From: Schaalia odontolytica
Lineage (GTDB): Bacteria; Actinomycetota; Actinomycetes; Actinomycetales; Actinomycetaceae
Direction: 5' to 3'
Length of the DNA: 32,000 bases
Assembly (NCBI RefSeq): GCF_005696695.1
Contig: NZ_CP040006.1
Coordinates: forward strand, 360,001-392,000
Positions 12,901 through 32,000 of this stretch are shown here, in pieces. A program made the position numbers and the translations under genes. Numbering within the stretch: the stretch's first letter is position 1; each line of letters opens with the position of its first letter. Below the pieces are notes generated by a model. That model was not told the DNA's origin, did not search any database, and saw nothing but the letters and a program-made list of their open reading frames with translations.

Positions 12901-14286
12901 TTATTGCGAGTCCGCGGGGAAAGCGACACGAATAGCCGTCGCCAGATCCGACACAGTAAACACGGTGATGCCGTCGACTCCCGACAGGTCTTCGCTGCCC
13001 TGAGCGGGCACGATCGCGCTAGAGAAGCCGAGGCGTGCGGCCTCGGCGAGGCGGCGCTGGGTGCCCGTGCAGGCGCGCACCTCGCCCGTCAGCGAGATCT
13101 CTCCGACCGCGACGAGGTCGGGGCGCGGGGGAGTGCCCTTGAGGGAGGACACGATGGAGATGGCCATCGCCAGGTCGATCGCGGGTTCGACCGTGCGTGC
13201 TCCGCCGACCGTGGAGACGTAGACGTCCGCCCCCGACGTGTCCGCGCCGATGCGGGCCTGCAGGACCGCGAGGATCATGGCGACGCGCGCGTGGTCCACG
13301 CCCGAGGTCGTGCGCCGGGGCGAGCCGCCCGACGAGGGGGCGACGAGGGACTGGATCTCCGTGGGCAGCGGGCGGCGCCCCTCCAGAGAAACGGCTGCGC
13401 ATGTGCCGGGCACGCCGCGCGTCGTGCGCGACAGGAACAGGCCGGACGGATCGGCGAGGCCGTAGATGCCCGAGTCCGTCAGCTCGAAGCAGCCGACCTC
13501 GTCGGTGGGGCCGTAGCGGTTTTTCACCGCGCGCAGCAGGCGCAGGCGCGAATGACGGTCGCCCTCGAACTGGCAGACGACGTCCACGAGGTGTTCGAGG
13601 ACGCGCGGACCGGCGATGCCGCCGTCCTTGGTCACGTGGCCGACGAGCAGGGTGGGAAGGTCGGACTCCTTGGCGACCCGGATCAGCGAGGCCGCGACCG
13701 CGCGCACCTGCGCGACGCCGCCCGCCCCGCCCTCGACCTGGGCGGAGGAGATGGTCTGCACGGAGTCGACGATGAGCAGGGAGGGGTGCGAGGCCTCGAC
13801 GTGCCCGAGGACGACGCCGAGCTCCGTCTCATCCGCGATCAGGAGGTTCGGTTCGAGCGCGCCGATGCGTTCCGCGCGCCCGCGCACCTGGGCCGCCGAC
13901 TCCTCGCCCGTCACGTAGAGGACGGGGCCGCGCCCGCCCGCCGCCGCCGTGCGCGCGGCCTTCGCGGCCACGTCCAGCAGCAACGTCGACTTACCCACGC
14001 CGGGTTCGCCCGCCAGGAGGATCACCGCTCCGGGCACGATGCCGCCGCCGAGGACCCGGTCCAGCTCGCCCACGCCCGTCGAGCGCGACGAGGCCCGCTC
14101 GCCGTCCACCTCGCCGATCGGCAGGGCGGGGCGACGCGGGGGAGTCGTGGCCGCGCGCGGCCCGCCCGAGGCTTCGCCGGCCTGGTCGACGGTGCCCCAC
14201 GCTCCGCACTCGCGGCACTGGCCCACCCACTTGGGGGAGGTCCACCCGCACTCGGAGCAGCGGTAGGTGATCTTCTCTTTCGCCAT
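12901..14286 (-). CDS. radA: DNA repair protein RadA/Sms
   Basis: MAKEKITYRCSECGWTSPKWVGQCRECGAWGT is the zinc finger. Walker A is LAGEPGVGKSTLL, followed by the KNRYGPTDEVG motif and a Lon-like C-domain. ATG at 14286. The 101-codon upstream extension in the ORF track was rejected. Confidence 0.95.
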   Translation of the reverse strand: MAKEKITYRCSECGWTSPKWVGQCRECGAWGTVDQAGEASGGPRAATTPPRRPALPIGEVDGERASSRSTGVGELDRVLGGGIVPGAVILLAGEPGVGKSTLLLDVAAKAARTAAAGGRGPVLYVTGEESAAQVRGRAERIGALEPNLLIADETELGVVLGHVEASHPSLLIVDSVQTISSAQVEGGAGGVAQVRAVAASLIRVAKESDLPTLLVGHVTKDGGIAGPRVLEHLVDVVCQFEGDRHSRLRLLRAVKNRYGPTDEVGCFELTDSGIYGLADPSGLFLSRTTRGVPGTCAAVSLEGRRPLPTEIQSLVAPSSGGSPRRTTSGVDHARVAMILAVLQARIGADTSGADVYVSTVGGARTVEPAIDLAMAISIVSSLKGTPPRPDLVAVGEISLTGEVRACTGTQRRLAEAARLGFSSAIVPAQGSEDLSGVDGITVFTVSDLATAIRVAFPADSQ

Positions 14287-14465
14287 GCACTCACCGTAAC
14301 CCGGCCCGCCCTCATCTGCGGTTCCCGCGCGCGGGTGGGTACCGTGACCCCGGCATCGGGAGAGCGGACCCGAGACCCGCCCCGGCCTCGTCGACGAGGT
14401 GCGATAGCCTAAATGCGCGACTGTGGTCAGGTTCTCGCGCGTGCGGAATGGCCATACAACGCCGC

Positions 14466-14481
14466 ACGAACCCCCGTTCGA
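14466..14481. promoter_or_regulatory. LexA (SOS) box-like palindrome ACGAAC-CCCC-GTTCGA
   Basis: The core CGAAC-N4-GTTCG matches perfectly the Gram-positive/actinobacterial LexA operator consensus TCGAAC-N4-GTTCGA, with one flank mismatch. It lies in the 344-bp divergent region, 180 nt from the radA ATG and 150 nt from the giant-gene ATG. Confidence 0.55.
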
Positions 14482-14630
14482 CAGGTTGCAGATTCCTCGG
14501 TACCTGTTGTTGTCTGCGGGGTTTATCCATAGGGTTGGTCGGTGTGTATCCTTGGGATGGTTGCCCATACCCTCCGCGGATACAGACAACGCCCCACACC
14601 AGTGCGCACATTGAGACTGAGGAAAGCCAC

Positions 14631-17600
14631 ATGAACAAGGCGCGTCGATCGCGAAACACCTGGTCGAAGCGGATACCCGCGCTCGCCGTCCTATTGGTGT
14701 CCGCGATGCTGTGCGTACTCGCGGTCGTGTATCGAGGCGTCGAGGTCACCCAGGTGAGCGTCGACGACGGCGGCATTTGGGTGACGAACCAGGACCGCAA
14801 GCTCCTCGGACACCTCAACTATGACGCCCTTATGCTGGACGGCACGGTCTCGGTGAAGTCCGCGTCCTTCGACATCGGTCAGGAGGGCGGCGACGTGACC
14901 CTGGGTGAGACCGTGAGTCGCACGGTCACCCCGGTGCGTCCGACCTCCTTCTCCCTCGGCCAGTCCGTCACCCTGCCCGACAATGCGGTCCAGGTCCAGG
15001 GCGGCTCGGTCCTGGCGGTCCTCGACCCCAACGAAGGCCTCCTGTGGGTCGGCAGCGCGAACGAGCCCGCCACCATGTCGCTCCTGCGCGAGGATGCGGT
15101 CGCCAACGACCTGAGTGACGGCATCGTGACGGTGTCGAACTCGGGCACGGTCTTCGCGTACTCTCCCGGCTCCTCCAAGCTCGTGACGCTGACGCGCGAG
15201 GGTCAAGCGTGGCGCGCCAAGACCACGGAGATCAAAGACTTTACGCCCGCCGGGACCCCGACGATTACCGCGGTCGGCGACAAGCCGGTCGTCTACGACC
15301 AGACCGGCAACAAGCTCGTCCTGCCCGGCGGCAAGGTCCGCGACCTGTCCGAGGAGCACGTGAGCGGCGCCGTCCTGCAGATCCCTGGCGACGAGGCCGC
15401 CTCGGTCCTCCTCGCGACCGGCGACCAGCTGGTGTCCGTGCCCCTGAACGGCAAGGCGATCGAGCGTCAGGAGGCCTCGGAGAGCGGCCAGAAGGGCACC
15501 CCCGCGGCCCCTGTCTTCCACCGTGGATGCTCCTACGGCGCGTGGGCGGGCTCGGGCGCGTTCGTGCGCACCTGCACGGACTCCTCGCGCAACCAGGCGC
15601 AGACGGTCCCGAGCCTGGCCGAGGCCTCCTCCGCCGTGTTCCGCACGAACCGCACGCGTATCGTCCTCAACGACGTTTCGACGGGCACGCTGTGGCTGCC
15701 CGACAAGAACATGGTCGTGGTCAGCAACTGGGACCAGACCCCCACCGAGGAGCAGGAGGAAGAGGACACTCCGACCCCCGACCAGCGTGAGCAGGTCTCC
15801 GAGCCGGAGCACAAGGACAAGAACACGCCGCCCGAGGCCGTGGATGACGAGTTCGGCATCCGCCCGGGCCGCTCGACGCTGCTGCCCGTCCTCGACAACG
15901 ACTCCGACGACGACGGCGACGTGCTGACGGCGCGCGCGGTCACCAACCCCGAGTTCGGCTCGATCGTGCGCACGAGGGGCGGCCGCGCCCTGCAGATCAC
16001 GGATGTCCCCGAGAACATGACGAGCGGATCGACGTCCTTCACGTACGAGGCCTCGGACGGCCTCGCGGGCGCGACGGCGAACGTGACGCTGACGATCCAC
16101 CCGTGGAGCCAGAACGAGGGCCCGCGCCAGCTCAAGCACCCGGTCATCAAGGTAGGTGCGAACGCGCAGGTCGAATACAACCTCCTGTCGGACTGGATCG
16201 ACCCGGACGGCGACCAGTTCTACCTGGTGTCGGCGACGGCCCCCGAGGGCATGGCCGTGCAGTTCTCCGAGGACGGCACGGTCCAGATCCAGGACTTGGG
16301 CTCGGGCGCTGGCGTCAAGGCGATCGCCGTGACCCTGTCGGACGGCCACGCCGAGACCACGGGCGAGCTGAAGGTGAGCGTCCAGGAGGCGGGCAATGTG
16401 CCGCCGGTGGCGCGCGCCGACTTCTACGTGGCGCGCGTGGCTGAGCCGCTGACGATCGACCCGATCGCCAACGACACGGATCCCAACGGCGACCCCCTGT
16501 CCCTCGTGGCGGCTGGCACACCCCCGGCCGGTACGTCGGTGAGTGCCGATCTGTCGCGCGGCACGCTGACGTTCACGGGCTCGGTGCCGGGATCCTTCCA
16601 GTTCACCTACACGGTCTCCGACGGCCCGTCGACGACCGTGGGTGTTATCCGCGTGGACGTGGTCGACGACGACACGAATGCTCTTCCGATCGCCGAGGAC
16701 GACCTGGCGGTCCTGCCCAGCGGCGGTGCCTCGCTGATCGCGCCGCTGGCCAACGACACGGATCCGTCCGGCGGAGTGCTTGTCGTTCAGTCGATCGACG
16801 TGCCCGCGAACTCGGGCCTCGAGGTCACGCTCATCGAGCGCCACCTGCTGCGCATCACGTCGCCGGGCGGCCTCACCGACGTGACGACCTTTACCTACAC
16901 GGTCTCCAACGGCGCGGGTTCCGCGACCGCCCAGGTGAGCGTCATCCCGACGAACGCACAGAGCGAGGAGACTCCGCCCCAGGTCACGGCCGACACCGCG
17001 AAGGTGCGCGCCGACGACATCGGCTCGGTGAGCGTCCTGTCGAACGACCGCTCGCCGATCGGCCTGTCGCTGAGCCTGGACCCGGAGGTGGAGGTCCTGT
17101 CGGGCGCCGAGCTGGGCACGGTCTTCGTGACCGGTAACCAGGTGCGTCTGGCCGCCGGCTCCGAGGCCGGCGTGGTGCGCGTGGCGTATACGGCCATCGA
17201 CTCGGTGGGTAACCGCGCGACGACTACCGTCACGTTCGAGATCATCGCTTCCTCCGCGGCCAACAGCGCGCCCGTGCCCAAGGCGCTGAGCGCGTGGGCC
17301 GTGCAGGGCCAGATGACGCGCATCCCCGTGCCGCTGACCGGCATCGACCCCGACGGCGACTCGGTCGCCCTGGTGGGCATCGACCAGCCGCCGGCCAAGG
17401 GCAGCGTCGTGCTGGGCACGGAGTGGCTGGAATACACGCCCTCCGACGATGCGACCGGCACGGACACCTTCTCCTACATCGTCGAGGACCGCCTCGGCGT
17501 GCAGGGACGCGCCCGCGTGCGCGTCGGCATCGCCCCTCCGGGCTCGCAGAACCACAACCCGACGGCCGTTCCCGACTCGGTGACGGTGCGTCCGGGGCGC

Positions 17601-20600
17601 GAGGTGAGCATCAACGTCCTGAGCAACGACCTGGACGCGGACGGCGACGCCCTGTACGTGGACACGGATCCGCAGACCGTGTCCGTGTCGGATCCGGCCG
17701 CGACCGTGACGATGGCCGAGGACCTGGTGACGGTGAAGGCGCCCGCCACGAACGGCGTGTTCGTCGTGGCCTACCAGATCGAGGACGGCCGAGGCGGTCG
17801 CGCCCAGGGTCAGCTGACCGTGACGGTGGACGCGGATGCGCCGCTGCGCGCGCCGATCGCCCGCGACGACGTCGTGCCGGTCTCCGACCTGCCCTCGGAC
17901 TCCAAGCCTGTCAGCGTTGCCGTCCTCGTCAACGACGAGGACCCGGACGGCACCACGGCTGCGCTGACGGTGTCCTCGGACGCCTCGGGCGTGAGCGTGT
18001 CGGGGCAGAACCTGTCCATTTCCCCGGACGCGCGCCGTCGCCTCGTCGTGTACACGGTGACGGACCCCGACGGCCTGAGCGCGAGCGCGGTCGTGACTGT
18101 TCCGGGTACCGACCTGCTGGCTCCGCGTCTGGACACGACGCGCGTCCCGGTGGCGATGCGCGCGGGCTCCACGCTGACCCTCGATATGCGCGACTACGTG
18201 CTGGTGCGCGACAACTCGCGCTCCCCGATCATCACCGACGCGTCGTCGGTGAAGTTCAGCGGCGGCCTGGATTCGGCCTCGCTTCAGGACTCCACGCACA
18301 TCACGCTGAGCGCGCCCGACACTGCCTCGGGCAAGGCCTCGGTCTCCTTCACGGTGCGTGACGGTGCCTCGGACGACGCCTCGGCCCTGACATCGACCCT
18401 GACGATCCCGATCACGATCCAGCCGGCCAGGAACCTGCCGCCGCGCCTGACCCCGACCCCGATCCTCGTGGGCCAGGGTGAGAGCGTGACGGTCGACCTC
18501 ACGCAGATGGTGGACGACCCGGACGACCAGGCGAAGGGCTCCTTCGAGTACCGCGTGGTGAAGGCCCCCGGCGGCGTGGACGTCTCCCTGGACGGCTACA
18601 ACCTGACCGTGTCCGGCAAGAAGGACCAGCCCAAGGGCCCGGTCGGCGCGATTACCGTCAGCGTCGACGACGGCTCGGGCGCGGTCAACGCCGACATTCC
18701 GGTCACGATCGTGAAGTCCTCCAAGCCCCTCGTGACGACCACGGAGGCCCGCATCAAGGCGAAGGCCGGCCAGACGGTGGACGTGAACCTGTCGGAGTAC
18801 ACGACGAATCCGTTCCCGGAGCCGCTCGTGGTCCTGGATGCGTCGGTGCACGTGGGCCAGGGAACCGCCTCGGGCAACGGCAACGTCCTGTCGGTGACCC
18901 CCAAGGCGGGCTTCCACGGCGACATGATCGTTGTTTATCGCGTCATGGACGCGACGAACGACCCCGATCGTGTGGTCCAGGGCCGCGTCGTTGTCAAGGT
19001 TTTGGATCGCCCTGAACCGCCGCAAAACGTGAAGGCGACGGCGATGGGGTCGCAGACCGCCTTCGTGCAGTTCGATGAGCCTGCCTCGAACGGTGGCACG
19101 ATTTCTGGCTACACGGTGACGGACCTGTTGGACGGGCGTACCTACAACACCACTAAGCCGGGCACGCAGATCAAGGGCCTGACGAATGGTGCGAAGCACC
19201 GCTTCACGGTCGTCGCGACGAACGAGGCCGGTGACTCCGATCCGTCGGCACCGTCCGCCGAGGTGAATGTCGATGTCGAGCCCGATCAGATGGCGGCACC
19301 TACGGTCGTGGGTTCGGATGGGGCCCTGGATGTCACGTGGGCGGAGCCGCACAACGAGGGCTCTAAGATCCAAACGTACACGGTGTTCCTGTATCCGGAA
19401 TCGGGCGGCCAGCCGATCCCGTACACGGCCGCTGGCACAGATAGGAAAATGACTATCTCTGGGTTGAAGAACGGTGCCCTCTACTCGGTGAGAATCCAGG
19501 CCCAGAACGACGCGGACAAACCGTCGCTGCTGTCGGAGGCCACAGGCGCGCACCCGCATGGCGCACCGGACCAGCCGACTGACGTGAGGGCGGTGGCCGT
19601 GACAGCGGATAAGGATCCGAACCTAGCGACGGTCGAGGTCTCGTGGACGCCGGGCCGTTCCGGCGGAACTGATTTCGGTTCTACCCATGTCATGGTGGGC
19701 GATAAGCCGGTGACGGCTCCGGCTGGTGCCAGGAGCGTCCAGGTGCCACTTGTGCCGACCGGTCGTGACAAGCAGGTGTCGGTGGAGCTGACGAACACCG
19801 ACGGTGACACGTCGGCGAAGGGGTACACGACGGTGTCCATCGCAACCACTCCCGCGCCGATTGCGGACCCGACCCTCTCGGGCACCGGGAAGGCCGGTCA
19901 GCTGAAGGTCACTGGGTTGTCGGTGGTGACGGGCCGAGGTTTCGAGGCGTCGGATCTGACCTTGCGCTACTCGGCGGACCCCAATTCATGTGCGAGTGGA
20001 CAACGGGTCGACGATGGCGACATCCTGCCCGCCAACGGCTGGGAGTCGAAGACGTACTACTTCTGCCAGACGGGCATCGGCGTGAACAACCAGCCGGCGG
20101 CCTCACCGGTCGCGTCCGCCACGGGCACAGCGACGGGCCGCCCCTCGGATGTGGGCGTGCGGTTCACAGGTGTCAACTCGACGAGCCTGACGGTTCAGTG
20201 GGATCCGGTGGGCGCGAACCCGGCGGTTACCGAGGTCCGCGTGTCGCTGAATAACGGCGCGACGCAGACTGTGCGTGGCGGTGTCAACACGGCGACCTTC
20301 TCGGATCTGGCCCAGGGCACCCGCTACCAGGCCACGGTCGTTGCGGTCAACGGTCTGGGCGAGACGGTGATGAGTGAGCAGCCGACGGAGACCACGAAGC
20401 TGGACGTGAACCTGACGTGGACGGAGGCTTGCCAGGGAGGCGAGAAGTACGGGTCCCCGGGTGGATGCCACACCTTTACGTTCAGTGCTCCGGGGTGGGC
20501 CGACACGTCGCTTACTCACAAATGTACGATTAGTTCGGATCTGGACGGTTGGACTGAAGAGCTGACTATCACTGGTGCCGGTCCCACTCCGTCGAAGATC

Positions 20601-20672
20601 GCAACGCGGGCGGATTCCGAGGCGGCGTTCGCGCAGAAGGTGCGCGTCGGCGATTGTCGCCCGGTGAGGTGA
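14631..20672 (+). CDS. Giant (2013 aa) membrane-anchored surface protein: N-terminal signal-anchor, domain of unknown fold of about 380 aa, about 11 cadherin-like/Ig-like repeats, about 5 fibronectin type III domains, and a Cys-containing C-terminal module
   Basis: ATG 14631 follows GAGGAAAG. The N-terminus is MNKARRSRNTWSKR followed by the TM segment IPALAVLLVSAMLCVLAVVY. The recurring repeat signature is xxDDxxxVxxGxxxxIxVLxNDxDPDGDxLxV (e.g. PVLDNDSDDDGDVL, PIANDTDPNGDPL, PLANDTDPSGGVL, NVLSNDLDADGDAL, VLVNDEDPDG). FN3 signatures include PEPPQNVKAT...GYTVT...GLTNGAKHRFTVVATNEAGDS and LDVTWAEP...ISGLKNGALYSVRIQAQN. Confidence 0.9.
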   Translation: MNKARRSRNTWSKRIPALAVLLVSAMLCVLAVVYRGVEVTQVSVDDGGIWVTNQDRKLLGHLNYDALMLDGTVSVKSASFDIGQEGGDVTLGETVSRTVTPVRPTSFSLGQSVTLPDNAVQVQGGSVLAVLDPNEGLLWVGSANEPATMSLLREDAVANDLSDGIVTVSNSGTVFAYSPGSSKLVTLTREGQAWRAKTTEIKDFTPAGTPTITAVGDKPVVYDQTGNKLVLPGGKVRDLSEEHVSGAVLQIPGDEAASVLLATGDQLVSVPLNGKAIERQEASESGQKGTPAAPVFHRGCSYGAWAGSGAFVRTCTDSSRNQAQTVPSLAEASSAVFRTNRTRIVLNDVSTGTLWLPDKNMVVVSNWDQTPTEEQEEEDTPTPDQREQVSEPEHKDKNTPPEAVDDEFGIRPGRSTLLPVLDNDSDDDGDVLTARAVTNPEFGSIVRTRGGRALQITDVPENMTSGSTSFTYEASDGLAGATANVTLTIHPWSQNEGPRQLKHPVIKVGANAQVEYNLLSDWIDPDGDQFYLVSATAPEGMAVQFSEDGTVQIQDLGSGAGVKAIAVTLSDGHAETTGELKVSVQEAGNVPPVARADFYVARVAEPLTIDPIANDTDPNGDPLSLVAAGTPPAGTSVSADLSRGTLTFTGSVPGSFQFTYTVSDGPSTTVGVIRVDVVDDDTNALPIAEDDLAVLPSGGASLIAPLANDTDPSGGVLVVQSIDVPANSGLEVTLIERHLLRITSPGGLTDVTTFTYTVSNGAGSATAQVSVIPTNAQSEETPPQVTADTAKVRADDIGSVSVLSNDRSPIGLSLSLDPEVEVLSGAELGTVFVTGNQVRLAAGSEAGVVRVAYTAIDSVGNRATTTVTFEIIASSAANSAPVPKALSAWAVQGQMTRIPVPLTGIDPDGDSVALVGIDQPPAKGSVVLGTEWLEYTPSDDATGTDTFSYIVEDRLGVQGRARVRVGIAPPGSQNHNPTAVPDSVTVRPGREVSINVLSNDLDADGDALYVDTDPQTVSVSDPAATVTMAEDLVTVKAPATNGVFVVAYQIEDGRGGRAQGQLTVTVDADAPLRAPIARDDVVPVSDLPSDSKPVSVAVLVNDEDPDGTTAALTVSSDASGVSVSGQNLSISPDARRRLVVYTVTDPDGLSASAVVTVPGTDLLAPRLDTTRVPVAMRAGSTLTLDMRDYVLVRDNSRSPIITDASSVKFSGGLDSASLQDSTHITLSAPDTASGKASVSFTVRDGASDDASALTSTLTIPITIQPARNLPPRLTPTPILVGQGESVTVDLTQMVDDPDDQAKGSFEYRVVKAPGGVDVSLDGYNLTVSGKKDQPKGPVGAITVSVDDGSGAVNADIPVTIVKSSKPLVTTTEARIKAKAGQTVDVNLSEYTTNPFPEPLVVLDASVHVGQGTASGNGNVLSVTPKAGFHGDMIVVYRVMDATNDPDRVVQGRVVVKVLDRPEPPQNVKATAMGSQTAFVQFDEPASNGGTISGYTVTDLLDGRTYNTTKPGTQIKGLTNGAKHRFTVVATNEAGDSDPSAPSAEVNVDVEPDQMAAPTVVGSDGALDVTWAEPHNEGSKIQTYTVFLYPESGGQPIPYTAAGTDRKMTISGLKNGALYSVRIQAQNDADKPSLLSEATGAHPHGAPDQPTDVRAVAVTADKDPNLATVEVSWTPGRSGGTDFGSTHVMVGDKPVTAPAGARSVQVPLVPTGRDKQVSVELTNTDGDTSAKGYTTVSIATTPAPIADPTLSGTGKAGQLKVTGLSVVTGRGFEASDLTLRYSADPNSCASGQRVDDGDILPANGWESKTYYFCQTGIGVNNQPAASPVASATGTATGRPSDVGVRFTGVNSTSLTVQWDPVGANPAVTEVRVSLNNGATQTVRGGVNTATFSDLAQGTRYQATVVAVNGLGETVMSEQPTETTKLDVNLTWTEACQGGEKYGSPGGCHTFTFSAPGWADTSLTHKCTISSDLDGWTEELTITGAGPTPSKIATRADSEAAFAQKVRVGDCRPVR
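15828..19010 (+). repeat. Tandem array of about 11 cadherin-like / bacterial Ig-like domains (about 95-100 aa each) inside the giant CDS
   Basis: The (L/I)xND(T/S/L/E)DPDGD calcium-binding-like motif and its preceding PxAxxD segment recur by eye at roughly 290-nt spacing. The copies are divergent at DNA level. Confidence 0.7.
19011..20400 (+). repeat. Array of about 5 fibronectin type III domains inside the giant CDS
   Basis: Five segments of about 90 aa show FN3-like W/Y/L core positions (VQFDEP, VTWAEP, VSWTPG, LTVQWDP). The boundaries are approximate. Confidence 0.65.
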
Positions 20673-20676
20673 GCCA

Positions 20677-21912
20677 GTGAAGAAACTACGTCGACTTGTG
20701 AGGCATGCGTGGCGCGCCCTGAGCGCCCGCGTGCAGGCGCTGCCCGGATACGAGGGCGTCGCCCGCTGGCTGGGCGCGCTGACCCCGGTGGGGTGGGCGG
20801 TGATCGCGGCGATGGTTGCGGGAACCGTCGCGGCCCTCGCCTTCGGCTGGCTGGAGGGCTTCATCGTGGCCGTCATGGGCCTGGTGGCCCTCGTGGTCGC
20901 GGTGGCCTCGGTCGCGTCCCCGTCCCCGCTGTCCGTGTCCCTGCGCATGAAGAACGACCGCATTGTCGCCGGCCAGGTGGCGGTGGGCCGCGTTCGCGTG
21001 GTCAACGAGTCCGGGCGCCGCTCGGGTTCGACCCTCGTGGAGGTGACGATCGGACGAGGCAGTGGCGAGTTCCTCGTACCCCCGATCAGCGGAAACGGCA
21101 CCTGGAACGAGTCCTTCTCGGTCATGACGAAGCGCCGCGGCGTCATCAACGTGGGCCCGGCGCGCACCGTGCGCATGGACGGCCTGGGCCTGCTGCGCCG
21201 CGTGCGTTCGTGGGATGACCCGATCCTCGTGCACGTGCACCCGCCGACGGTGCGTTTCTCCTTTGACGCGACGGGCATGCAGATGGACGTCGAGGGTGTG
21301 GCCAGCGAGAAGCTGACGAGCTCCGACGTGTCCTTCCACGCCCTGCGCGACTACGAGCCGGGCGACGACCGCCGCGCGGTGCACTGGCCGTCGACGGCGC
21401 GTTTTGGCCGCCTGATCGTGCGTCAGTTCGAAGAGACTCACCGCTCGCACCACATGGTGCTGTTGGATACGCGCGTGGACGCGTGGGATCGGCGCTCGTT
21501 TGAGACGGCCGTGTCGGTTGCCGCGTCGCTGGCGCTCGCCGGCTCGGGCGAGGCCCGCACGGTGTCGATGCACACCGCGGACGAGTGGATCCCCACGGGC
21601 TCGCCCATGGCGATGCTGGATGCGCTGTCCGAGATGGAGACGTCGACGCGCTCTGAGTTTGCGGGCATCGTGCGCCGCTGCATCATGGAGCGCGGCGGGA
21701 TCTCGGTGCTCTCGATCGTCGTCGGCGCTGGCGTGGACGACGAGGAGGCGGCTCGCCTGGCGAACATCGCTCCTGTCGACGTCATCGTGTCGGTGATCCG
21801 CGTGGTCCCGGGCCGGGCACGTCGCCGCCGCAAGATCACGCGCGGCGTCATCATCGACTGCCCCTCCCTCGAAGACCTGCCGATGCTCGTGTCCCGGGGG
21901 GTGAACGCGTGA
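20677..21912 (+). CDS. DUF58 domain-containing membrane protein (degenerate vWA fold; usual partner of MoxR ATPases)
   Basis: GTG lies 4 nt after the giant-gene stop. There are two N-terminal TM helices. The DUF58 signature is FHALRDYEPGDDRRAVHWPSTARFGRLIVRQFEE. Confidence 0.85.
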   Translation: MKKLRRLVRHAWRALSARVQALPGYEGVARWLGALTPVGWAVIAAMVAGTVAALAFGWLEGFIVAVMGLVALVVAVASVASPSPLSVSLRMKNDRIVAGQVAVGRVRVVNESGRRSGSTLVEVTIGRGSGEFLVPPISGNGTWNESFSVMTKRRGVINVGPARTVRMDGLGLLRRVRSWDDPILVHVHPPTVRFSFDATGMQMDVEGVASEKLTSSDVSFHALRDYEPGDDRRAVHWPSTARFGRLIVRQFEETHRSHHMVLLDTRVDAWDRRSFETAVSVAASLALAGSGEARTVSMHTADEWIPTGSPMAMLDALSEMETSTRSEFAGIVRRCIMERGGISVLSIVVGAGVDDEEAARLANIAPVDVIVSVIRVVPGRARRRRKITRGVIIDCPSLEDLPMLVSRGVNA

Positions 21913-24464
21913 GTACTCCTGCTCGCAACGCCTCGCGTCCGGCACCTCCGCCGCGTCGCTCCCGTCGCCCCGTCGCCCAGGAAACCACGATGGGTGGGTC
22001 GATCCACCGCGCCGCCATGCCCGCGTGGTCCCTGCTCATCCTCGCGGTCCTCTTCTCCGGTCCGATCCTTATGTTCGAGTCCGTCTTCGGCGGCGGCCAG
22101 GGCGCGATTGCGGCGCTCGCGGGCGTCGTGGTCGGCCTCGTGGTCGCGTGGGCGGCCGCCAAGTGGCGCTGGGACCTGCTCTCGATCGTCGCGGCGGTTG
22201 TGGCCTCGCACTTCCTCTTCGGTGGCGTTGCCGCGCTGCGTGAGACGACCCGCTGGGGCGTGGTCCCGACGTCGCGGACCCTCCAGACGCTGGTCGTCGG
22301 TTCGGTCGAGGCCTGGAAGGACCTCCTGACGCTGACGCCGCCGGCCGGCTCCTACGTGGGGCCCGCGATGGTGCCGTGGATGGCCTGCCTCGTGTGTTCG
22401 GTTGCGGCGGGCGTCGTGACGGTGCGCTACGGGCGTCCGATGTGGGGATCTGTGCCGCTGATCCTCGCCGGCGTGATCGCGATCGTGTGGGGGCCGTCGG
22501 GCCACTCCCCGTCCGCCCTCCTCGTCATCGCGTGGTGGGTGGGACTCATCGTGTGGTGGGCGTGGGCCTCGGCGATCGGACGCGCACGACTGGGCGCCGA
22601 CATCGTCATTGGTATGGCCTCTACGGCGACTACCGCGTCGACGACCGTGGGCGGTTCCTCGCGCCAGATCGTGCACGTGTGGTGGCGCGTGGGCATGGGC
22701 GCGCTCATGGTGGGCGTCATGGTTGCTGCGGCGATCCCTGCGGCGTCCCTGCTGGGCCCCACGGCCTCGGACCGCGTCGTCGGACGCGACGTCGTCGAGC
22801 CGCCCGTGGACGCGCGCCAGTACCCCTCGCCGCTGTCCAGCTACCGCCACTACAACAAGGACCTCGAGGATGAATCCCTGATCCGCGTGTCCAACATGCC
22901 CAAGGAGGCGCGCGTGCGCCTGGGCGCGATGGACGTGTACGACGGGACGACCTTCGGCATGGGCGTCACGAATACCGCGGACGGCACGGCCGGATACCGC
23001 CGCGTGGGGTCCACGATCCCGGGGCGCAGCGCCGATACGGCGGGCGTGCAGACCTCGGTGTCGACCTCGCAGCTGCTGGGACCGTGGGTGCCCACGATCG
23101 GCCAGGTGTCGGTCCTTCGCTTTGAGCCCTCCGCCCCCAACGCGGCCGAGCAGCAGGACGGCCTGAACTATGACCTGTGGGCGGATACCGCCCTGACGAC
23201 GGGCCCGACCGGCCAGCTGAGCTACTCGCTGAGCACGACGATGCCGCGCGAACACGCGGACTCGGAGTTCGCCAGCGTGAACGCGGCGCGCTACGCCGGG
23301 GGCGACACGAACGTCCCGAAGGACGTGGACTCCCTGGCCGCGGATCACACGTCGACCGCGCGCTCGGACCTGGAGAAGGCCCGCGCGATCGAGCAGTTCC
23401 TGCACACGGATGGCTACTACTCCAACGAGGACACGATCAATTCGCGTCCCGGCTCCTCCCAGGACCGCATCGAGCGCATGATCAGCGCCGAGGCGCTGGT
23501 GGGCGACGACGAGCAGTACGCGACCCTCATGGCCCTCATGCTGCACTCGCAGGGCATTAACGCCCGCGTCGTGATGGGCGCCTACCGCGAGGGCACGTCC
23601 GGCAGCGTCGACCTGACGGGTTCGGACATGCACGCGTGGGTCGAGGTGGAGTTCCCCGGCGTTGGCTGGGCGACCTTCGACCCGACTCCGCCGCGCGATC
23701 AGCAGCCCACGACGCAGGTCAACAAGCCTAAGTCCGTGCCCAAGCCCCAGGTCCTGCAGCCCCCGGAGCCGCCCGAGCAGCCGGTCGAGCTGCCGCCCGC
23801 GACCCGCGACCAGGCGACGGATCCGCATGATCCGAACGGCGTCCACATCCCGTGGATGGCGATCGGCACGGTGTCGGTGTCGCTCCTCCTGCTGCTGGGC
23901 CCGGTCCTGGCGGTGCTCCTGGCGAAGTCTCGCCGCCGCAAGAGCCGCCGCCGCGCGCAGGCCGCCGAGTCGGTGCGCGGCTCGTGGGACGAGCTCGTGG
24001 ATACCGCGATCGACTCCGGCCTCGTCGTCGAGCCGCACCTGACGCGCCAGGAGGTCGCGTGGGCGCTGGCCTCGCAGTGGACGCCCAAGAAGTCCGAGAG
24101 TGACGAGGAGGGGGACGCCAAGGCCCGCAAGGCGCGCAAGCGCTCGGCTGCGGACGTGCGCGTGCCCGGCTGGTCGCTGTTCTCGGGCGCGGTTCCCCGG
24201 GCCGTCACCGTGGCGCGCCGCGCGGACGTCGCGGACTTCGCTGCCGGCGGTGCCCGCCCCGAGGACGCGGAGCAGGCGTGGAACGACGTGGATGAGCTGC
24301 GTCGCGAGTGGGCGGCCTCGGTGTCGCCGTTCGCGCGAGCGCGTTACGCGCTGTCGCTGAAGTCGCTGCGCTGGCGCCGTCGCGCCCGCCGCCAGGCTGA
24401 CGCCGCTCGCAAGGGTGGTCGCTCGCTGGCCAAGCGCATGGGCCGTAGGAAAGGGAAACGTTGA
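21909..24464 (+). CDS. TgpA-like polytopic membrane protein with a transglutaminase-core fold (Cys position occupied by Asp) and a basic cytoplasmic C-terminal tail
   Basis: GTGA overlap with the DUF58 stop. About 6 N-terminal TM helices. The core segment is GDDEQYATLMALMLHSQGINARVVMGAY...DMHAWVEVEFPGVGWATFDPTP. A late TM segment IPWMAIGTVSVSLLLLLGPVLAVLLA is followed by an Arg-rich tail. Confidence 0.85.
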   Translation: MSTPARNASRPAPPPRRSRRPVAQETTMGGSIHRAAMPAWSLLILAVLFSGPILMFESVFGGGQGAIAALAGVVVGLVVAWAAAKWRWDLLSIVAAVVASHFLFGGVAALRETTRWGVVPTSRTLQTLVVGSVEAWKDLLTLTPPAGSYVGPAMVPWMACLVCSVAAGVVTVRYGRPMWGSVPLILAGVIAIVWGPSGHSPSALLVIAWWVGLIVWWAWASAIGRARLGADIVIGMASTATTASTTVGGSSRQIVHVWWRVGMGALMVGVMVAAAIPAASLLGPTASDRVVGRDVVEPPVDARQYPSPLSSYRHYNKDLEDESLIRVSNMPKEARVRLGAMDVYDGTTFGMGVTNTADGTAGYRRVGSTIPGRSADTAGVQTSVSTSQLLGPWVPTIGQVSVLRFEPSAPNAAEQQDGLNYDLWADTALTTGPTGQLSYSLSTTMPREHADSEFASVNAARYAGGDTNVPKDVDSLAADHTSTARSDLEKARAIEQFLHTDGYYSNEDTINSRPGSSQDRIERMISAEALVGDDEQYATLMALMLHSQGINARVVMGAYREGTSGSVDLTGSDMHAWVEVEFPGVGWATFDPTPPRDQQPTTQVNKPKSVPKPQVLQPPEPPEQPVELPPATRDQATDPHDPNGVHIPWMAIGTVSVSLLLLLGPVLAVLLAKSRRRKSRRRAQAAESVRGSWDELVDTAIDSGLVVEPHLTRQEVAWALASQWTPKKSESDEEGDAKARKARKRSAADVRVPGWSLFSGAVPRAVTVARRADVADFAAGGARPEDAEQAWNDVDELRREWAASVSPFARARYALSLKSLRWRRRARRQADAARKGGRSLAKRMGRRKGKR

Positions 24465-25981
24465 TGGATAGCGACGCTCGCGTCGGAATGGTGCCGTCGC
24501 TGCCGGGTTACGAGTGGATTCGTCCGCTCGGGTCGGGTGGTTTCGCGGACGTGTTCCTGTGCCGCCAGGAGCTGCCCAGCCGTGAGGTGGCCGTCAAGGT
24601 GGCGCGCAGGGATCGTGGGGCGGACGGCGAGGCCGGTATCGCCCGCGAGGCCGACGTGATGGCTCTCGTGTCGGGTCACCCGGCGGTGGCCCAGCTGTAC
24701 GGCGCGGGGCGCACGCCGGATGGTCGCCCGTACCTGGTGATGGAGTACTGCCCGGTCGCGAACATCCTCGATCAGGTGCGCGCAAACCCGATGTCGACGG
24801 ATCGCGCGCTGTCGATGGTGATCCGCATGTGCGGTGGTGCTGAGATGCTGCACCGCGCGGGCTACGTGCACCGGGATATTAAGCCCAGCAACATCATGAT
24901 CAACGCCTTCGGGTCGCCGGTGCTCACCGACTTCGGCGTGTCCGAGCCGGTGGGTGCGGACCCGCGCGGCGGCCGCGACGGCTTCTCGGTGATGTGGGCG
25001 CCGCCCGAGCAGATCGCGGGCACGGCGCGAGCTCACCCGACGCAGGACGTGTGGGCACTGGGCGCGACCCTGTGGACGCTTCTCATGGGCCGCTCGCCCT
25101 TCGAGGTGGAGGACGGGGATAACTCGGCCCACGCGGTCGCCCAGCGCGTCGCCCGTGGCCGCGTGTCGCGCATCGACCGCCCGGGCGTGCCCGACGCTGT
25201 GACGGCCATCGTGCGCCGCGCGATGAGCCTGGACCCGGAGCAGCGCTTCGGGTCGGCGGCAGCCCTCGGCTACGCGCTGCAGACGGTCGAGCGAGAGATG
25301 CACCGCCCGGTCACGGAGATGAAGCTGAGCGTGGTGGCCTCCTCGAGCGCGCCCTCCTCGGCCCTGTCTGCCCCGTCTGCGGCGGCCCTGGACGCGGAGC
25401 GTACGCGCACCCGCCGCGGGAGTTTCGCGGACGGTCCCCAGGCCTCGTCGAACGAGGCGTGGGCCGGTAACTCGACGACGAACCGAACCGGGTTGGTTGA
25501 GGGGCAGTCGAAGCGCCCCGCGTGGGTGGTGCCGGTCCTGGCGCTCGTGATGGTGCTGGCGACGGCCGGCCTGGTGGTCGCGATGCTCACCGGCGGCGGA
25601 CACAGCATCCACCTGGGCGGAGGCGGTGGCGGCGTATCCACGCCGACTCCCTCCTCGAGCGCGGGGACAGTGAGCAACTCCGATCAGGGCGACGCGGGCG
25701 CCGTCCCGCCCGAGGCCGTGACCGGGTTGACGGCCACCCCGAACGGCAACGAGATCCGCTGGGGCTGGGAGGTGCCCGAGCAGGGCCAGTACCAGCCCGG
25801 AGCGCTCGAATTCAAGTACGTGCTCACCCGTCCGGGCGAGGCTGTGGTGGCCGAGACGATGCGCCGCAACAGCCTGACGACGACCGCGGTGAGCGGCGAG
25901 AACTGTCTGACCGTGAGCCTCGTTGTGACCTCCACGGGCCGCGAGTCCGCGCCGGTCACCCAGTGCGTGACGGTGCCGTAG
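24464..25981 (+). CDS. Transmembrane Ser/Thr protein kinase (Hanks type) with an FN3-like extracellular domain
   Basis: ATG 24464 (TTG 24461 also in frame) overlaps the upstream TGA. Motifs: Gly-loop LGSGGFADV, VAVK lysine, HRDIKPSN, DFG, WAPPE. The TM segment is AWVVPVLALVMVLATAGLVVAML. The C-terminal 100 aa (PEAVTGLTATPNGNEIRWGWEVP...LTVSLVVTSTGRES) are FN3-like. Confidence 0.9.
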   Translation: MDSDARVGMVPSLPGYEWIRPLGSGGFADVFLCRQELPSREVAVKVARRDRGADGEAGIAREADVMALVSGHPAVAQLYGAGRTPDGRPYLVMEYCPVANILDQVRANPMSTDRALSMVIRMCGGAEMLHRAGYVHRDIKPSNIMINAFGSPVLTDFGVSEPVGADPRGGRDGFSVMWAPPEQIAGTARAHPTQDVWALGATLWTLLMGRSPFEVEDGDNSAHAVAQRVARGRVSRIDRPGVPDAVTAIVRRAMSLDPEQRFGSAAALGYALQTVEREMHRPVTEMKLSVVASSSAPSSALSAPSAAALDAERTRTRRGSFADGPQASSNEAWAGNSTTNRTGLVEGQSKRPAWVVPVLALVMVLATAGLVVAMLTGGGHSIHLGGGGGGVSTPTPSSSAGTVSNSDQGDAGAVPPEAVTGLTATPNGNEIRWGWEVPEQGQYQPGALEFKYVLTRPGEAVVAETMRRNSLTTTAVSGENCLTVSLVVTSTGRESAPVTQCVTVP

Positions 25982-26083
25982 GGCGCTGGCGTCATGCACT
26001 TTCGTGACTGGCTCGACGGCGCATGACCGAGTGGTAGACTGCTGTGTTGCGCGCCGTCGGAGCGCGTGGCGAAAGGAAGTGTG

Positions 26084-27292
26084 ATGAGGCGCGACATTGC
26101 CCGAACGATACGGCGCGGCACGGGGGTTGCCCTGGCGGGCACGCTTGCCGTTGCAGCCCTCGTGGTTCCTGCGGCCCCAGCATCGGCGGATGCCACGATC
26201 ACGGCGAACGAACAGACCTTCTACGGCTACTACCGCTTGGACGCAATCCACTCGTCAGGCTACACGGGCGAAGGCGTGACGATCGCGCTCGTTGACGGCC
26301 CCATCAACACGCAGATCCCTGAGCTAGCCGGTGCGCGCATCCAGTCCTACAGCCCATGCGCCGTGGACTCCCAAGACAAGTCCTGGGACCACGGCACCGT
26401 CATCGCGCAGGTGATTTCCTCGCCTCAGTTTGGCGTGGCCCCCGGCGCGAATCTACGCGCCTACACATTGTCATTTGCCGGTGAGACGACGGGTTCCGAC
26501 TGTGCGCTCGGGCAGTGGGGGCGAGGCTACTCCGACCTCGCTCTCCTCATCGAGGACGCGCTTAACGACGGCGTCGACGTGATCACGACGTCGTCGAGCT
26601 ACCCCAGCGATTACGAGGGCATGCGCTGGGCTCTCGCCCGAGCGATTGCGTCTAAGGTTCCGGTTGTCGCCTGCGTGGGGAACGACTCGACCAGTAACTC
26701 GACGGATTGGCTGCCCGCCTGGGGTGGCGTCGTCGGCGTGGGCGCGATCGAGACCAACGGTCGCCCCTCCGACTACCAGAACTGGGGAAGGCCCCTGTCG
26801 ACGGCGGCCCTCGCGCGCCCTCTCGCCCGCTCGGGCGTGTCTCAGGAACGGGGCGAGTGGTGGGGGACGTCCTTCGCGAGCCCCGTCGTGGCTGGCTCCC
26901 TGGCACTGTCCATGCAGCGCTGGCCTCGCGCGACCGGCAACCAGATCATGCAGGGCCTGGCCCGCACCGGCGTGGGCGGCAACGGCGGCGAATGGAACCA
27001 ATACACGGGGTACGGTGCGCTCGACATCTACGCGATGCTGACGACGAACCCGACGAGTTTCCCGGATGAAAACCCGTTCATGGACAAGGGAACGAACACG
27101 GTTCCCAGCCGCCAGGACGTGCAGGACTACATCGACGGCGTGGTGGATCCGCGCGTCGTCATGAACGACAACTCCTACGAATACCTAGGGTTCGACGAGC
27201 GTCTCGCACTCAGCCGCGATCATGACTATCCGACGCACCTGGGCACCAGCCCCCGCTACCACCAGAAGTTCCAGTCTCAGAAAAAGAACTAA
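26084..27292 (+). CDS. Secreted S8 family serine peptidase (subtilase), paralog 1
   Basis: ATG 26084 follows GCGAAAGGAAG. The signal peptide is RRGTGVALAGTLAVAALVVPAAPASA/DA. The triad contexts are TIALVDGP (Asp), WDHGTVIAQ (His), VGND (oxyanion Asn) and GTSFASPVVAG (Ser). An extension of about 95 aa at the C-terminus ends YPTHLGTSPRYHQKFQSQKKN. Confidence 0.85.
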   Translation: MRRDIARTIRRGTGVALAGTLAVAALVVPAAPASADATITANEQTFYGYYRLDAIHSSGYTGEGVTIALVDGPINTQIPELAGARIQSYSPCAVDSQDKSWDHGTVIAQVISSPQFGVAPGANLRAYTLSFAGETTGSDCALGQWGRGYSDLALLIEDALNDGVDVITTSSSYPSDYEGMRWALARAIASKVPVVACVGNDSTSNSTDWLPAWGGVVGVGAIETNGRPSDYQNWGRPLSTAALARPLARSGVSQERGEWWGTSFASPVVAGSLALSMQRWPRATGNQIMQGLARTGVGGNGGEWNQYTGYGALDIYAMLTTNPTSFPDENPFMDKGTNTVPSRQDVQDYIDGVVDPRVVMNDNSYEYLGFDERLALSRDHDYPTHLGTSPRYHQKFQSQKKN

Positions 27293-27333
27293 CGCTCGCG
27301 GGCGCCCCATTGCGCGCAGCGAAAGGACAGCTG

Positions 27334-28548
27334 ATGAGTCATCTGATGACACGCCTGGCGAGACGCGGTGCCGGCCTGGGAGCCGCCTGCGCGCTCGCGG
27401 GCGCGGTCCTCGTGTTCCCCGCAGCCCCGGCCCAGGCCTCGCGCGCGCCGATCACGTCGGATGAGCAGGACTACTACTCCTACTACTACCTGGGGCAGCT
27501 CCACGCGTCGGGTTACACCGGCAGGGGCGTGACGATTGGCCTGCTGGACGGCCCGGTCAACACGAACATCCCGGAGCTGCAGGGCGCGAACATCCAGTAC
27601 ATGAGCCGCTGCGACGTGGAGTCCAGCGAGGACAGCTGGGAGCACGGCACGGTCATCGCCCAGATGATCTCAGCACCGGAGTTTGGGATCGCCCCCGAGG
27701 CGAGGCTCAACCGCTACACGGTGTCGCTGAAAGGCGATACGCCGAGCAGGGATTGTGCGATCGGCTGGTGGGATGACGGATACTCTGATACGTCGGTTCT
27801 CATTGAGCTGGCGCTCAACGACGGGGTGGACGTGATCACGATGTCCTCGTCGTACAGCGCCGACACTGAGAGTATGCGCTGGGCGTTGGCTCGCGCGATC
27901 ACGCAGAAGGTGCCCGTCGTGGCCCCTCTCGGCAATGAGTCGGAGTACAACCCGTCCACGTCGCTCGCGCGCATGACCGGCGTGGTGGGGGCGTCGTCGG
28001 TGTACCCCGATGGGTCGCTGACCTCGTATTCGAACTATGGGGACTTCGTGTCGGCGGCGTCCGTGTCGCGTCCGTACGCGAGGAGCGGCATCACGTGGGA
28101 GACCGGGTATTGGCAGGGGACGTCGTTCGCGTCTCCGACGATCGCATCCTTCTTGGCGTTGGCGAAGCAGAGCTGGCCCGAGGCGACGGGTAATCAGCTC
28201 CTGCAGGCCCTGGCCCGCACGGGGATCGGCGGCAACGGTGGGTACTGGAACCCGTACACGGGGTACGGGGCGGTGGACCCATACGTGCTGCTGACGACGA
28301 ATCCGACCCAGTTCCCGGACGAGAACCCGTTCTTGAACAAGGGCTATGAGTCCATTCCGACCCAGCGTGACATCGCGGACTACGCGGACGGCCTGGTGGA
28401 TCCGAGGCGCATCAACGCAGATGATTCCTACCAGTATCGGGGCTTCGACGAGCGTCTCACCCTGAGCCACGAGCACGGCTACCCGACGCACCTGGGGACC
28501 AGCCCGCGCTTCCACGCGAGCAATGCGAGCAACGCGAAGAAGAAGTAG
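27334..28548 (+). CDS. Secreted S8 family serine peptidase (subtilase), paralog 2 (tandem duplicate of paralog 1)
   Basis: ATG 27334 follows GCGAAAGGACAG, the same RBS context as paralog 1. The signal is ARRGAGLGAACALAGAVLVFPAAPAQA/SR. Motifs: IGLLDGP, WEHGTVIAQ, LGNE, GTSFASPTIAS. The C-terminus is YPTHLGTSPRFHASNASNAKKK. It is collinear with paralog 1 along its whole length. Confidence 0.85.
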   Translation: MSHLMTRLARRGAGLGAACALAGAVLVFPAAPAQASRAPITSDEQDYYSYYYLGQLHASGYTGRGVTIGLLDGPVNTNIPELQGANIQYMSRCDVESSEDSWEHGTVIAQMISAPEFGIAPEARLNRYTVSLKGDTPSRDCAIGWWDDGYSDTSVLIELALNDGVDVITMSSSYSADTESMRWALARAITQKVPVVAPLGNESEYNPSTSLARMTGVVGASSVYPDGSLTSYSNYGDFVSAASVSRPYARSGITWETGYWQGTSFASPTIASFLALAKQSWPEATGNQLLQALARTGIGGNGGYWNPYTGYGAVDPYVLLTTNPTQFPDENPFLNKGYESIPTQRDIADYADGLVDPRRINADDSYQYRGFDERLTLSHEHGYPTHLGTSPRFHASNASNAKKK

Positions 28549-31540: not shown

Positions 31541-31567
31541 GATTAATTTCCCTTTTCTTATGAAGGC

Positions 31568-31990: not shown

Positions 31991-32000
31991 GCTCTTCTGA

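Follow-up and report, generated by a model that had tools for sequence, protein, structure and literature searches.

Does a giant surface protein that stands in the place of a MoxR-type ATPase in front of a DUF58 gene define a new envelope system, or is such a locus a shortened copy of one that is already known? The question is raised by a stretch of 32,000 nucleotides of Schaalia odontolytica (assembly GCF_005696695.1, contig NZ_CP040006.1, positions 360,001 to 392,000 of the forward strand), referred to here as a whole as the window. It carries an operon of four genes, encoding a giant surface protein, a DUF58 protein, a transglutaminase-fold membrane protein (TGM) and a receptor Ser/Thr kinase. 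An earlier note on this DNA could not assign the combination to any described system. However, the locus is homologous to the PFNA cluster of bifidobacteria and fits the Esx-integrated Esr2 (epibiont sensing and response) pathway of S. odontolytica F0309. Most likely, the four genes are the signal-detection part of an envelope sensing pathway of the Esr/PFNA type and correspond to Esr2, and the system itself is already reported in S. odontolytica, in a preprint.

The four open reading frames (ORFs) are tightly packed on the plus strand (Table 1), and their content was confirmed by Pfam, with Big_9, Cadherin_4, Cadherin_5 and fn3 matches in the giant protein, followed by DUF58, Transglut_core and Pkinase. 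The giant gene starts at ATG 14631, preceded by GAGGAAAG, and public gene calls likewise give 2013 aa. Two of the junctions read in the earlier note were borne out: the stop codon of the giant gene (TGA, 20670-20672) is separated from the DUF58 start (GTG, 20677) by four nucleotides (20673-20676), and the TGM stop (TGA, 24462-24464) shares one nucleotide with the kinase start (ATG, 24464-24466). The third, a GTGA overlap at 21909-21912, exists if the TGM starts at GTG 21909 and disappears with a start at ATG 21990, which is preceded by AGGAAA and is used in most public gene calls (824 aa, 77-nt gap); the 851-aa form from GTG 21909 is used in one NCBI record. The stretch 21912-21990 differs between species by two in-frame indels, of 15 nt and 3 nt, and in two related clusters (L087 and L094) 4-nt overlaps are called. 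Both observations lean, though not decisively, towards the upstream start at GTG 21909.

Esr pathways were described in S. odontolytica F0309 by Wang et al. (bioRxiv 9 Sep 2026, PMC13622651). In this preprint, EsrA is a filamentous surface protein with a Sec signal, an N-terminal beta-propeller and 14 Ig-like repeats, and the other parts are a MoxR, a vWA protein, the transglutaminase-like EsrD, the kinase EsrE, the phosphatase EsrF1 and the FHA output protein EsrG. Of the two clusters distinguished, Esr1 drives a transcriptional response to Saccharibacteria, and Esr2, for which the names esrA2, esrD, esrE2 and EsrG2 are used, is integrated into the esx locus. In an esrA2 deletion strain the Esx substrates AesA and AesB were not secreted and the epibiont grew better. 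EsrA1 was needed for the kinase-dependent phosphorylation of EsrG1, and deletion of esrD1 led to the appearance of EsrA1 in the supernatant. Across Actinomycetes, 3502 Esr pathways were counted, 40% of them beside esx genes; the search criterion was the full set of Esr1 orthologues, and MoxR is listed among the esr genes of S. odontolytica (PMC13622651).

Several of these parts recur in the window. The vWA-type partner is represented by the DUF58 protein, as judged by Pfam, an AlphaFold model and Foldseek, and EsrE by the receptor kinase. The TGM stands for EsrD, with the fold present and the catalytic Cys absent. In the giant protein, the putative EsrA counterpart, Ig/cadherin/FN3 repeats and an N-terminal signal-anchor are present, and its N-terminal domain, which has no Pfam match, is conserved in 71 fetched loci. 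Integration into esx operons was also found, as the kinase is followed by mycosin-like proteases and, further downstream, by EccC, EccD and WXG100 genes. Beyond the end of the window (L089, 1-9973) lie genes for a 185-aa and a 180-aa protein, EccC, a 478-aa polytopic EccD-like protein, a 486-aa protein, two WXG100 proteins and EccD; in S. meyeri, the same synteny reaches as far as EccC. No FHA output protein is encoded inside the window. The 486-aa protein, about 7 kb past the window end, is matched weakly by the RDD (E 3e-4) and FHA (E 3e-3) families, and its C-terminus is homologous to the gene that follows the TGM in canonical clusters. This RDD-like/FHA-like protein is a candidate for EsrG2.

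The second known relative is the PFNA cluster of Bifidobacterium, with the gene order pkb2-fn3-aaa-atp-duf58-tgm, to which prpC, a hypothetical gene and fha may be added (PMC8430577, PMC6803598, PMC10688814). In the PFNA literature, the FN3 protein of B. longum has 1994 aa, a C-terminal FN3-containing fragment was reported to bind TNF-alpha, and the cluster is regarded as restricted to bifidobacteria. For comparison, 80 loci, one per species, were retrieved across Actinomycetota with a profile of DUF58 homologues, and the B. adolescentis PFNA sequences were taken from the supplementary alignments of PMC6803598. The B. adolescentis duf58 product aligned over its full length to the DUF58 protein of the window (E 1e-35) and to those of all 80 other loci, and the non-repetitive N-terminal 507 aa of the fn3 product were collinear with the giant gene of the window (E 1e-32) and with 64 other loci. 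Judging from these alignments, the PFNA cluster and the Esr pathway appear to be one gene family. A cluster of the order giant-MoxR-DUF58-TGM-(FHA)-PP2C-FHA-kinase (L024-L086) was found in many free-living Actinomycetota. The restriction of PFNA to bifidobacteria is contradicted by the loci from Cellulosimicrobium, Promicromonospora, Brachybacterium, Agreia, Cryobacterium, Nocardioides, Propionibacteriaceae and others.

The giant protein consists of an N-terminal signal-anchor, an N-terminal domain of about 370 aa, a Big_9/cadherin-like stalk, FN3-like modules (four by sequence reading, three stretches scored by Pfam) and a Cys-containing C-terminal domain. At its N-terminus, positive charge and one hydrophobic segment are found with no obvious cleavage site, and no LPXTG motif is present in the protein. 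It is probably anchored via the N-terminus, which would place the conserved N-terminal domain beside the membrane and the C-terminus distally. The N-terminal domain gave no match in Pfam, and the first 430 aa align to the giant genes of 71 fetched loci.

Within the species, the two ends of this protein differ strongly. When the window is compared with other strains of S. odontolytica, nucleotide identity is 93-100% over most of the operon and falls to 64-77% in the C-terminal third of the giant gene. For most strains, this third has 57-80% amino acid identity, a dS (rate of synonymous substitutions) of 0.25-0.73, which is 5-10 times that of the remaining gene, and a ratio of nonsynonymous to synonymous rates (dN/dS) of 0.4-0.6, versus 97-99.8% identity and a dN/dS of 0.03-0.10 in the N-terminal 400 aa. 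Which sub-blocks are shared differs from strain to strain; two strains (L002 and L004) match the window at aa 1831-2013 and not at aa 1421-1830. This pattern is, on sequence evidence, a signature of recombining, diversifying alleles at the distal end, and the concentration of diversity in the C-terminal third suggests that this end faces an antagonist.

By its position, the hypervariable region is the counterpart of the PFNA fragment for which TNF-alpha binding was reported. Together with the homology to PFNA and the life of S. odontolytica in a host, this would suit an operon for host interaction in the PFNA sense, with the giant FN3 protein as an adhesin or cytokine binder and the kinase as a sensor of host immune signals. 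Such a function is nevertheless improbable: the cluster is also present in Actinomycetota from soil and the environment (such as Cellulosimicrobium, Promicromonospora, Agreia, Cryobacterium and Nocardioides), which argues against a host-specific primary role. The operon is also embedded in an Esx locus, and the genetics of esrA2 in S. odontolytica connect it with Esx substrate secretion and epibiont control.

As the earlier note had claimed, no MoxR-type gene is present and the slot upstream of the DUF58 gene is empty. Pfam found no AAA_3 domain among all large ORFs of the window or in the next 10 kb (about 41 kb in all), and in a tblastn search of the window with two MoxR proteins at E<=10 the sole match was the Walker A motif of FtsH. 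Nor were remnants of MoxR, PP2C or FHA genes detected in the window by relaxed tblastn. No PP2C was found in the window or the next 10 kb either; a phosphatase, EsrF, is named for Esr1 alone in the preprint. The broader statement that the 32 kb contain no AAA+ gene at all did not hold, as the window encodes FtsH and the RecA-like RadA.

In the retrieved loci, neighbouring genes were located by tblastn with seed proteins and their domains confirmed by Pfam; the 75 species loci with upstream DNA could be evaluated for the moxR slot. In 71 of them, an AAA_3 MoxR of about 320 aa lies between a Big_9/cadherin/FN3 gene for about 2000 aa and the DUF58 gene, followed by the Transglut_core membrane protein. 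Most loci also have PP2C, FHA and Ser/Thr kinase genes, either downstream or, in Microbacteriaceae, upstream. The four loci without MoxR (L007-L010) all come from S. odontolytica-like genomes or S. meyeri, with DUF58 proteins 85-100% identical to that of the window. In these and in the window, the stop of the giant gene abuts the DUF58 start, and S8 protease genes after the kinase replace the PP2C and FHA genes. The MoxR-less arrangement is therefore not a new kind of system: with moxR in its slot in 71 of the 75 loci, its absence here is a local deletion, which is the outcome that the earlier note had named as speaking against its own reading.

Two arrangements were seen among the relatives. 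In the first, the kinase directly follows the TGM (the window, L011-L021 and L087, the DUF58 proteins of the latter two sets being 44-60% identical to that of the window). The second has the order TGM-FHA-PP2C-FHA-kinase (L034, L090-L094 and, by tblastn order, most others) and DUF58 proteins with 33-40% identity to that of the window. Schaalia suimastitidis has two distinct MoxR proteins on different contigs, one in an Esr2-type locus (L020) and one elsewhere (P0452), one of each kind, from which the two arrangements are taken to be paralogues coexisting in Schaalia. MoxR is kept in the nearest relatives that have the same gene order, of which some (L016, L020 and L021) are Esx-linked. As every Esr2-type locus outside the S. 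odontolytica/S. meyeri clade does so, the simplest history is a single, clean and lineage-specific deletion of moxR in the ancestor of this clade. The PP2C and FHA genes are likewise gone after the kinase in this clade.

These comparisons also bear on the idea of a truly MoxR-independent new envelope module in which the giant protein has taken the MoxR slot. The absence of MoxR from the window and the next 10 kb and the intact genes under selection are what one would expect of it, yet it is even less probable than a host-interaction operon, as the four proteins are collinear with clusters that have both a giant gene and MoxR, and two descriptions of the system already exist, under the names PFNA and Esr. 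The giant protein does not replace MoxR, because homologous clusters contain both.

The four remaining genes are under purifying selection, with dN/dS values in the range 0.14-0.27 (Table 1), calculated by the Nei-Gojobori method for the window paired with S. meyeri or with a divergent strain of S. odontolytica; for the radA control, the value for the window versus L007 was an extraction artefact and was excluded. ORFs are full length in every S. odontolytica and S. meyeri locus examined. All 60 of the 60 columns with a conservation of 90% or more in MoxR-containing loci are kept in the DUF58 protein. A faster evolution of DUF58 after the loss of MoxR was considered and rejected, as its divergence from outgroups is no greater than in MoxR-containing relatives. 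It follows from this lack of relaxed constraint that either MoxR is supplied in trans or MoxR is not what constrains DUF58. A decaying remnant, i.e. non-functional leftovers after the loss of MoxR, PP2C and FHA, would account for the three of seven ancestral components that are absent at the locus, and is the least credible of the explanations, excluded by the full-length ORFs, dN/dS values of 0.14-0.27 close to those of radA, the conserved DUF58 columns, the kept kinase motifs and the phenotype published for the esrA2 deletion (PMC13622651).

Table 1. Features of the window discussed in the text, the operon first, with dN/dS values where calculated.
Feature	Position	Strand	Length	Evidence	dN/dS
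Giant EsrA2/PFNA-FN3-type surface protein	14631-20672	+	2013 aa	Pfam and sequence reading	0.23-0.27
Hypervariable mosaic C-terminal third of giant gene (FN3 modules and C-terminal domain)	18891-20672	+	~aa 1421-2013		
DUF58 protein ("vWA" partner)	20677-21912	+	411 aa	Pfam DUF58	0.14
TGM, EsrD2/TgpA-like polytopic membrane protein	21909 (or 21990)-24464	+	851 or 824 aa	Transglut_core, E 3e-19	0.19-0.23
EsrE2-type receptor Ser/Thr kinase	24464-25981	+	505 aa	Pkinase, E 6e-40	0.15-0.16
Mycosin-like S8 protease	26066-27292	+		Pfam Peptidase_S8	
Mycosin-like S8 protease	27310-28548	+		Pfam Peptidase_S8	
Mycosin-like S8 protease	28623-29864	-		Pfam Peptidase_S8	
565-aa protein and start of 185-aa gene running off the window	29843-32000	-		UniRef "PPE family domain-containing" (565-aa protein)	
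FtsH	4721-6766			PF00004 AAA, E 5e-47	
folB-folK ORF	8193-10280		695 aa	Pfam FolB and HPPK	
RadA, RecA-like (control)	12901-14589	-			0.12-0.16

Sources of MoxR outside the window were also looked for. Searches with S. suimastitidis and S. canis MoxR queries returned no match named S. odontolytica or S. meyeri. An abundant group of 326-aa MoxR proteins belongs to a cluster named Peptidiphaga gingivicola, and a 321-aa group to contigs resembling "Pauljensenia sp. 20925_1_25" with a complete Esr1-type cluster (L094); neither could be tied to the window strain.

The Cys of the GFC motif of TgpA, the transglutaminase-like protein of Pseudomonas aeruginosa, is taken here to be the catalytic residue. 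Judged by its hydrophobic segments, the TGM of the window has about seven N-terminal transmembrane (TM) helices, an extracytoplasmic transglutaminase-fold domain, one further TM helix and an Arg-rich cytoplasmic tail. Its core (window 23109-23810) aligns to P. aeruginosa TgpA (PDB 6g49) with E 1e-4, and where TgpA reads GFCAHYA, the window protein reads GDDEQYA, with Asp in place of Cys; the His and Asp of the triad are kept. No Cys is found anywhere in the TGM ectodomain of the window. In the aligned loci of both cluster types (L007-L094), the Cys position is occupied by D, E, A, Q, G or H and never by C, and the family shows variation at the conserved His as well. The Cys-His-Asp triad of TgpA-type enzymes is thus incomplete in the window TGM. 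Since this protein lacks the catalytic Cys, covalent attachment of EsrA through a canonical transglutaminase reaction is unlikely; the release of EsrA1 from the esrD1 deletion strain would be explained equally by a loss of non-covalent retention.

The kinase has a cytoplasmic domain with intact VAVK, HRD and DFG motifs, a single TM helix and an ectodomain in which two Cys are conserved. The earlier note had called it an FN3-bearing kinase. The kinase was confirmed, and for the FN3 domain the picture is mixed: Pfam gave no match in the ectodomain even at E<=1, hhalign against the FN3 domains of the giant protein gave a weak 30% probability, and it is structure prediction that points to FN3, as a single-sequence AlphaFold model of the ectodomain (predicted local distance difference test score, pLDDT, 85.6) shows a 7-strand sandwich, for which FN3 domains were the best matches in the PDB. 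The wider claim of the note, that an envelope module here links Ser/Thr phospho-signalling to a very large protein outside the cell, was supported. An adhesin-like role of the giant protein and a stoichiometric co-expression of the genes, both put forward in the note, are putative.

The DUF58 protein, modelled by AlphaFold with a pLDDT of 90.4, combines a TM hairpin at the N-terminus with a beta-sandwich of the CARDB kind and an alpha/beta domain that resembles vWA. The top Foldseek match of this model was a vWA-containing inter-alpha-inhibitor heavy chain, and CARDB domains were matched too. The soluble domains are predicted to lie in the cytoplasm, the usual site of MoxR action.

From these parts, a working mechanism can be proposed. 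EsrA2 would be held at the membrane by its N-terminal signal-anchor, with the Ig/cadherin/FN3 stalk projecting and the variable C-terminal tip outermost. Within the membrane it would form a complex with the DUF58/vWA-like protein and with EsrD2, which lacks the Cys, and the receptor kinase EsrE2 would be activated when this complex changes. EsrE2 may then act on the FHA-domain output protein encoded in the adjacent esx locus. We infer that the four proteins form one trans-membrane complex that turns an event at the giant protein into kinase activity. The output would gate the export of some Esx substrates (in the preprint, AesA and AesB) that restrain Saccharibacteria epibionts. The ancestral cluster presumably comprised giant-MoxR-DUF58-TGM together with kinase, PP2C and FHA genes, and moxR would have been lost before S. 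odontolytica and S. meyeri separated. The window copy might then no longer need MoxR activity, or might obtain it in trans from the complete Esr1 cluster reported for the same species in the preprint.

Several points weigh against the assignment to Esr2 and against this mechanism. Species, gene types and esx adjacency are the grounds for equating the window locus with Esr2. The preprint model draws MoxR in Esr1-like and Esr2-like pathways alike, and its text makes no statement of the Esr2 gene content (PMC13622651). No MoxR is encoded within about 41 kb of the window copy, and the complete Esr1-type cluster that was recovered (L094) is not demonstrably from the window strain. The supply of MoxR in trans is putative, with the Esr1 statement of the preprint as its only evidence. 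The FHA match of the 486-aa protein (E 0.003) is below the Pfam threshold. Finally, membrane topologies and the C-terminal tip as the sensing end are readings from sequence, and it is the beta-propeller of EsrA, not the C-terminal tip, that the preprint stresses (PMC13622651).

With these reservations, the Esr2 reading carries a further proposal, which is held tentatively and may well prove wrong. Esr2 of S. odontolytica and S. meyeri could be a natural minimal Esr pathway, which either borrows the MoxR of Esr1, with cross-talk between the two paralogous systems, or works without an ATPase. The current Esr model would then need revision on two further points: EsrD could not anchor EsrA by a Cys-dependent transglutaminase reaction, as the nucleophile is absent throughout the family, and the ligand-facing, arms-race end of EsrA2 would be the recombining C-terminal FN3/tip region and not the propeller next to the membrane.

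The wider relevance of the system lies in the link between a pan-actinobacterial surface sensor, type VII secretion and defence against Saccharibacteria. The present analysis adds an Esx-linked copy that has lost MoxR and phosphatase by a clean, lineage-specific deletion and is under purifying selection; as this MoxR-less copy is still constrained, it provides a natural case for testing the need for MoxR in cis. It also adds the occurrence of the PFNA/Esr family in free-living Actinomycetota, which weakens the host-cytokine view of PFNA, a transglutaminase-like component that lacks the Cys family-wide, and a within-species diversity centred on the C-terminal third of the giant protein. What remains of interest is how the copy without MoxR and phosphatase works, the Cys-less EsrD and the hypervariable C-terminal region.

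The surroundings of the operon are as follows. The window is high in GC, and the S. odontolytica records KSW135xx and QCT348xx (assembly GCA_001462375.1, contig LLVT01000001.1) contain proteins identical to those it encodes; the strain may be XH001, the host of the epibiont TM7x. Along the window lie, in this order, ppa, dacB, a zincin gene, tilS, ftsH, folE, folP, folB-folK and a DUF3180 gene, then disA and radA on the minus strand, the four-gene operon, three S8 protease genes and the gene for the 565-aa protein on the minus strand. The S8 proteases match NCBIfam T7SS_mycosin with E 2e-37, under the curated cut-off, and the protease array after the kinase varies between 3 and 5 copies, and in orientation, among otherwise near-identical strains (L001-L006). 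The start of radA is ambiguous (a 562-aa ORF from TTG versus 460-513 aa in public gene calls); a start further in, as in the public calls, would widen the divergent intergenic region upstream of the giant gene. In the folB-folK ORF, the Pfam matches span the first ~320 aa alone, and the ~365 C-terminal residues without a family match could be an over-long ORF call or an extra domain. A scan of the window with Rfam gave no matches, and promoter and terminator scans were not better than in shuffled sequence. S. odontolytica-type sequence (99-100% identity) was also met under other names in public records (L007, L010, P0624 and P0609), namely "Sanguibacter keddieii 250_SKED", "uncultured Xylanimonas sp.", "Xylanimonas cellulosilytica" and an "Isoptericola variabilis" metagenome-assembled genome; mislabelling or contamination is the likely reason for such sequences being filed as Sanguibacter, Xylanimonas or Isoptericola.

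Four described systems can be set beside the locus. The triads of MoxR (MRP subfamily), DUF58 and TgpA (Snider & Houry 2006 and Wong & Houry 2012, as cited in PMC6803598 and PMC12067865; TgpA in PMC3507681) resemble it in that the gene after DUF58 encodes a polytopic membrane protein whose extracytoplasmic part has the transglutaminase fold. The window differs in that no MoxR precedes DUF58, which is separated from the giant gene by the 4-nt gap, in GDD for GFC, and in the addition of the giant protein and the kinase. The MoxR-vWA-beta-propeller ternary conflict systems (Kaur, Burroughs, Iyer & Aravind 2020, PMC7159879) are similar in that MoxR proteins of the window's relatives match Pfam bpMoxR (PF20030) and in the logic that leads from a sensor via MoxR/vWA to a kinase/FHA output, whereas the window copy is without the MoxR component. 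The authors of the Esr preprint draw the same analogy and say that the survey missed these clusters (PMC13622651).

With the PFNA cluster, the locus shares homologous DUF58 and FN3 proteins (the latter of about 2000 aa, with a collinear unique N-terminal domain) and, co-oriented, four of the five gene types; unlike PFNA, the window has no aaa-atp (MoxR) gene, its kinase is last and not first, and it is Esx-linked. In comparison with the Esr pathways (PMC13622651), the window copy lacks MoxR and PP2C in cis, its Cys-less EsrD fits badly with the proposed covalent anchoring, and the part of EsrA2 that varies within the species is the C-terminal third and not the N-terminal propeller region. Esr2 has in common with the locus the species, a giant filamentous Ig-repeat protein, a vWA/DUF58 protein, EsrD and EsrE, a position inside esx operons and an FHA-type candidate nearby (PMC13622651).

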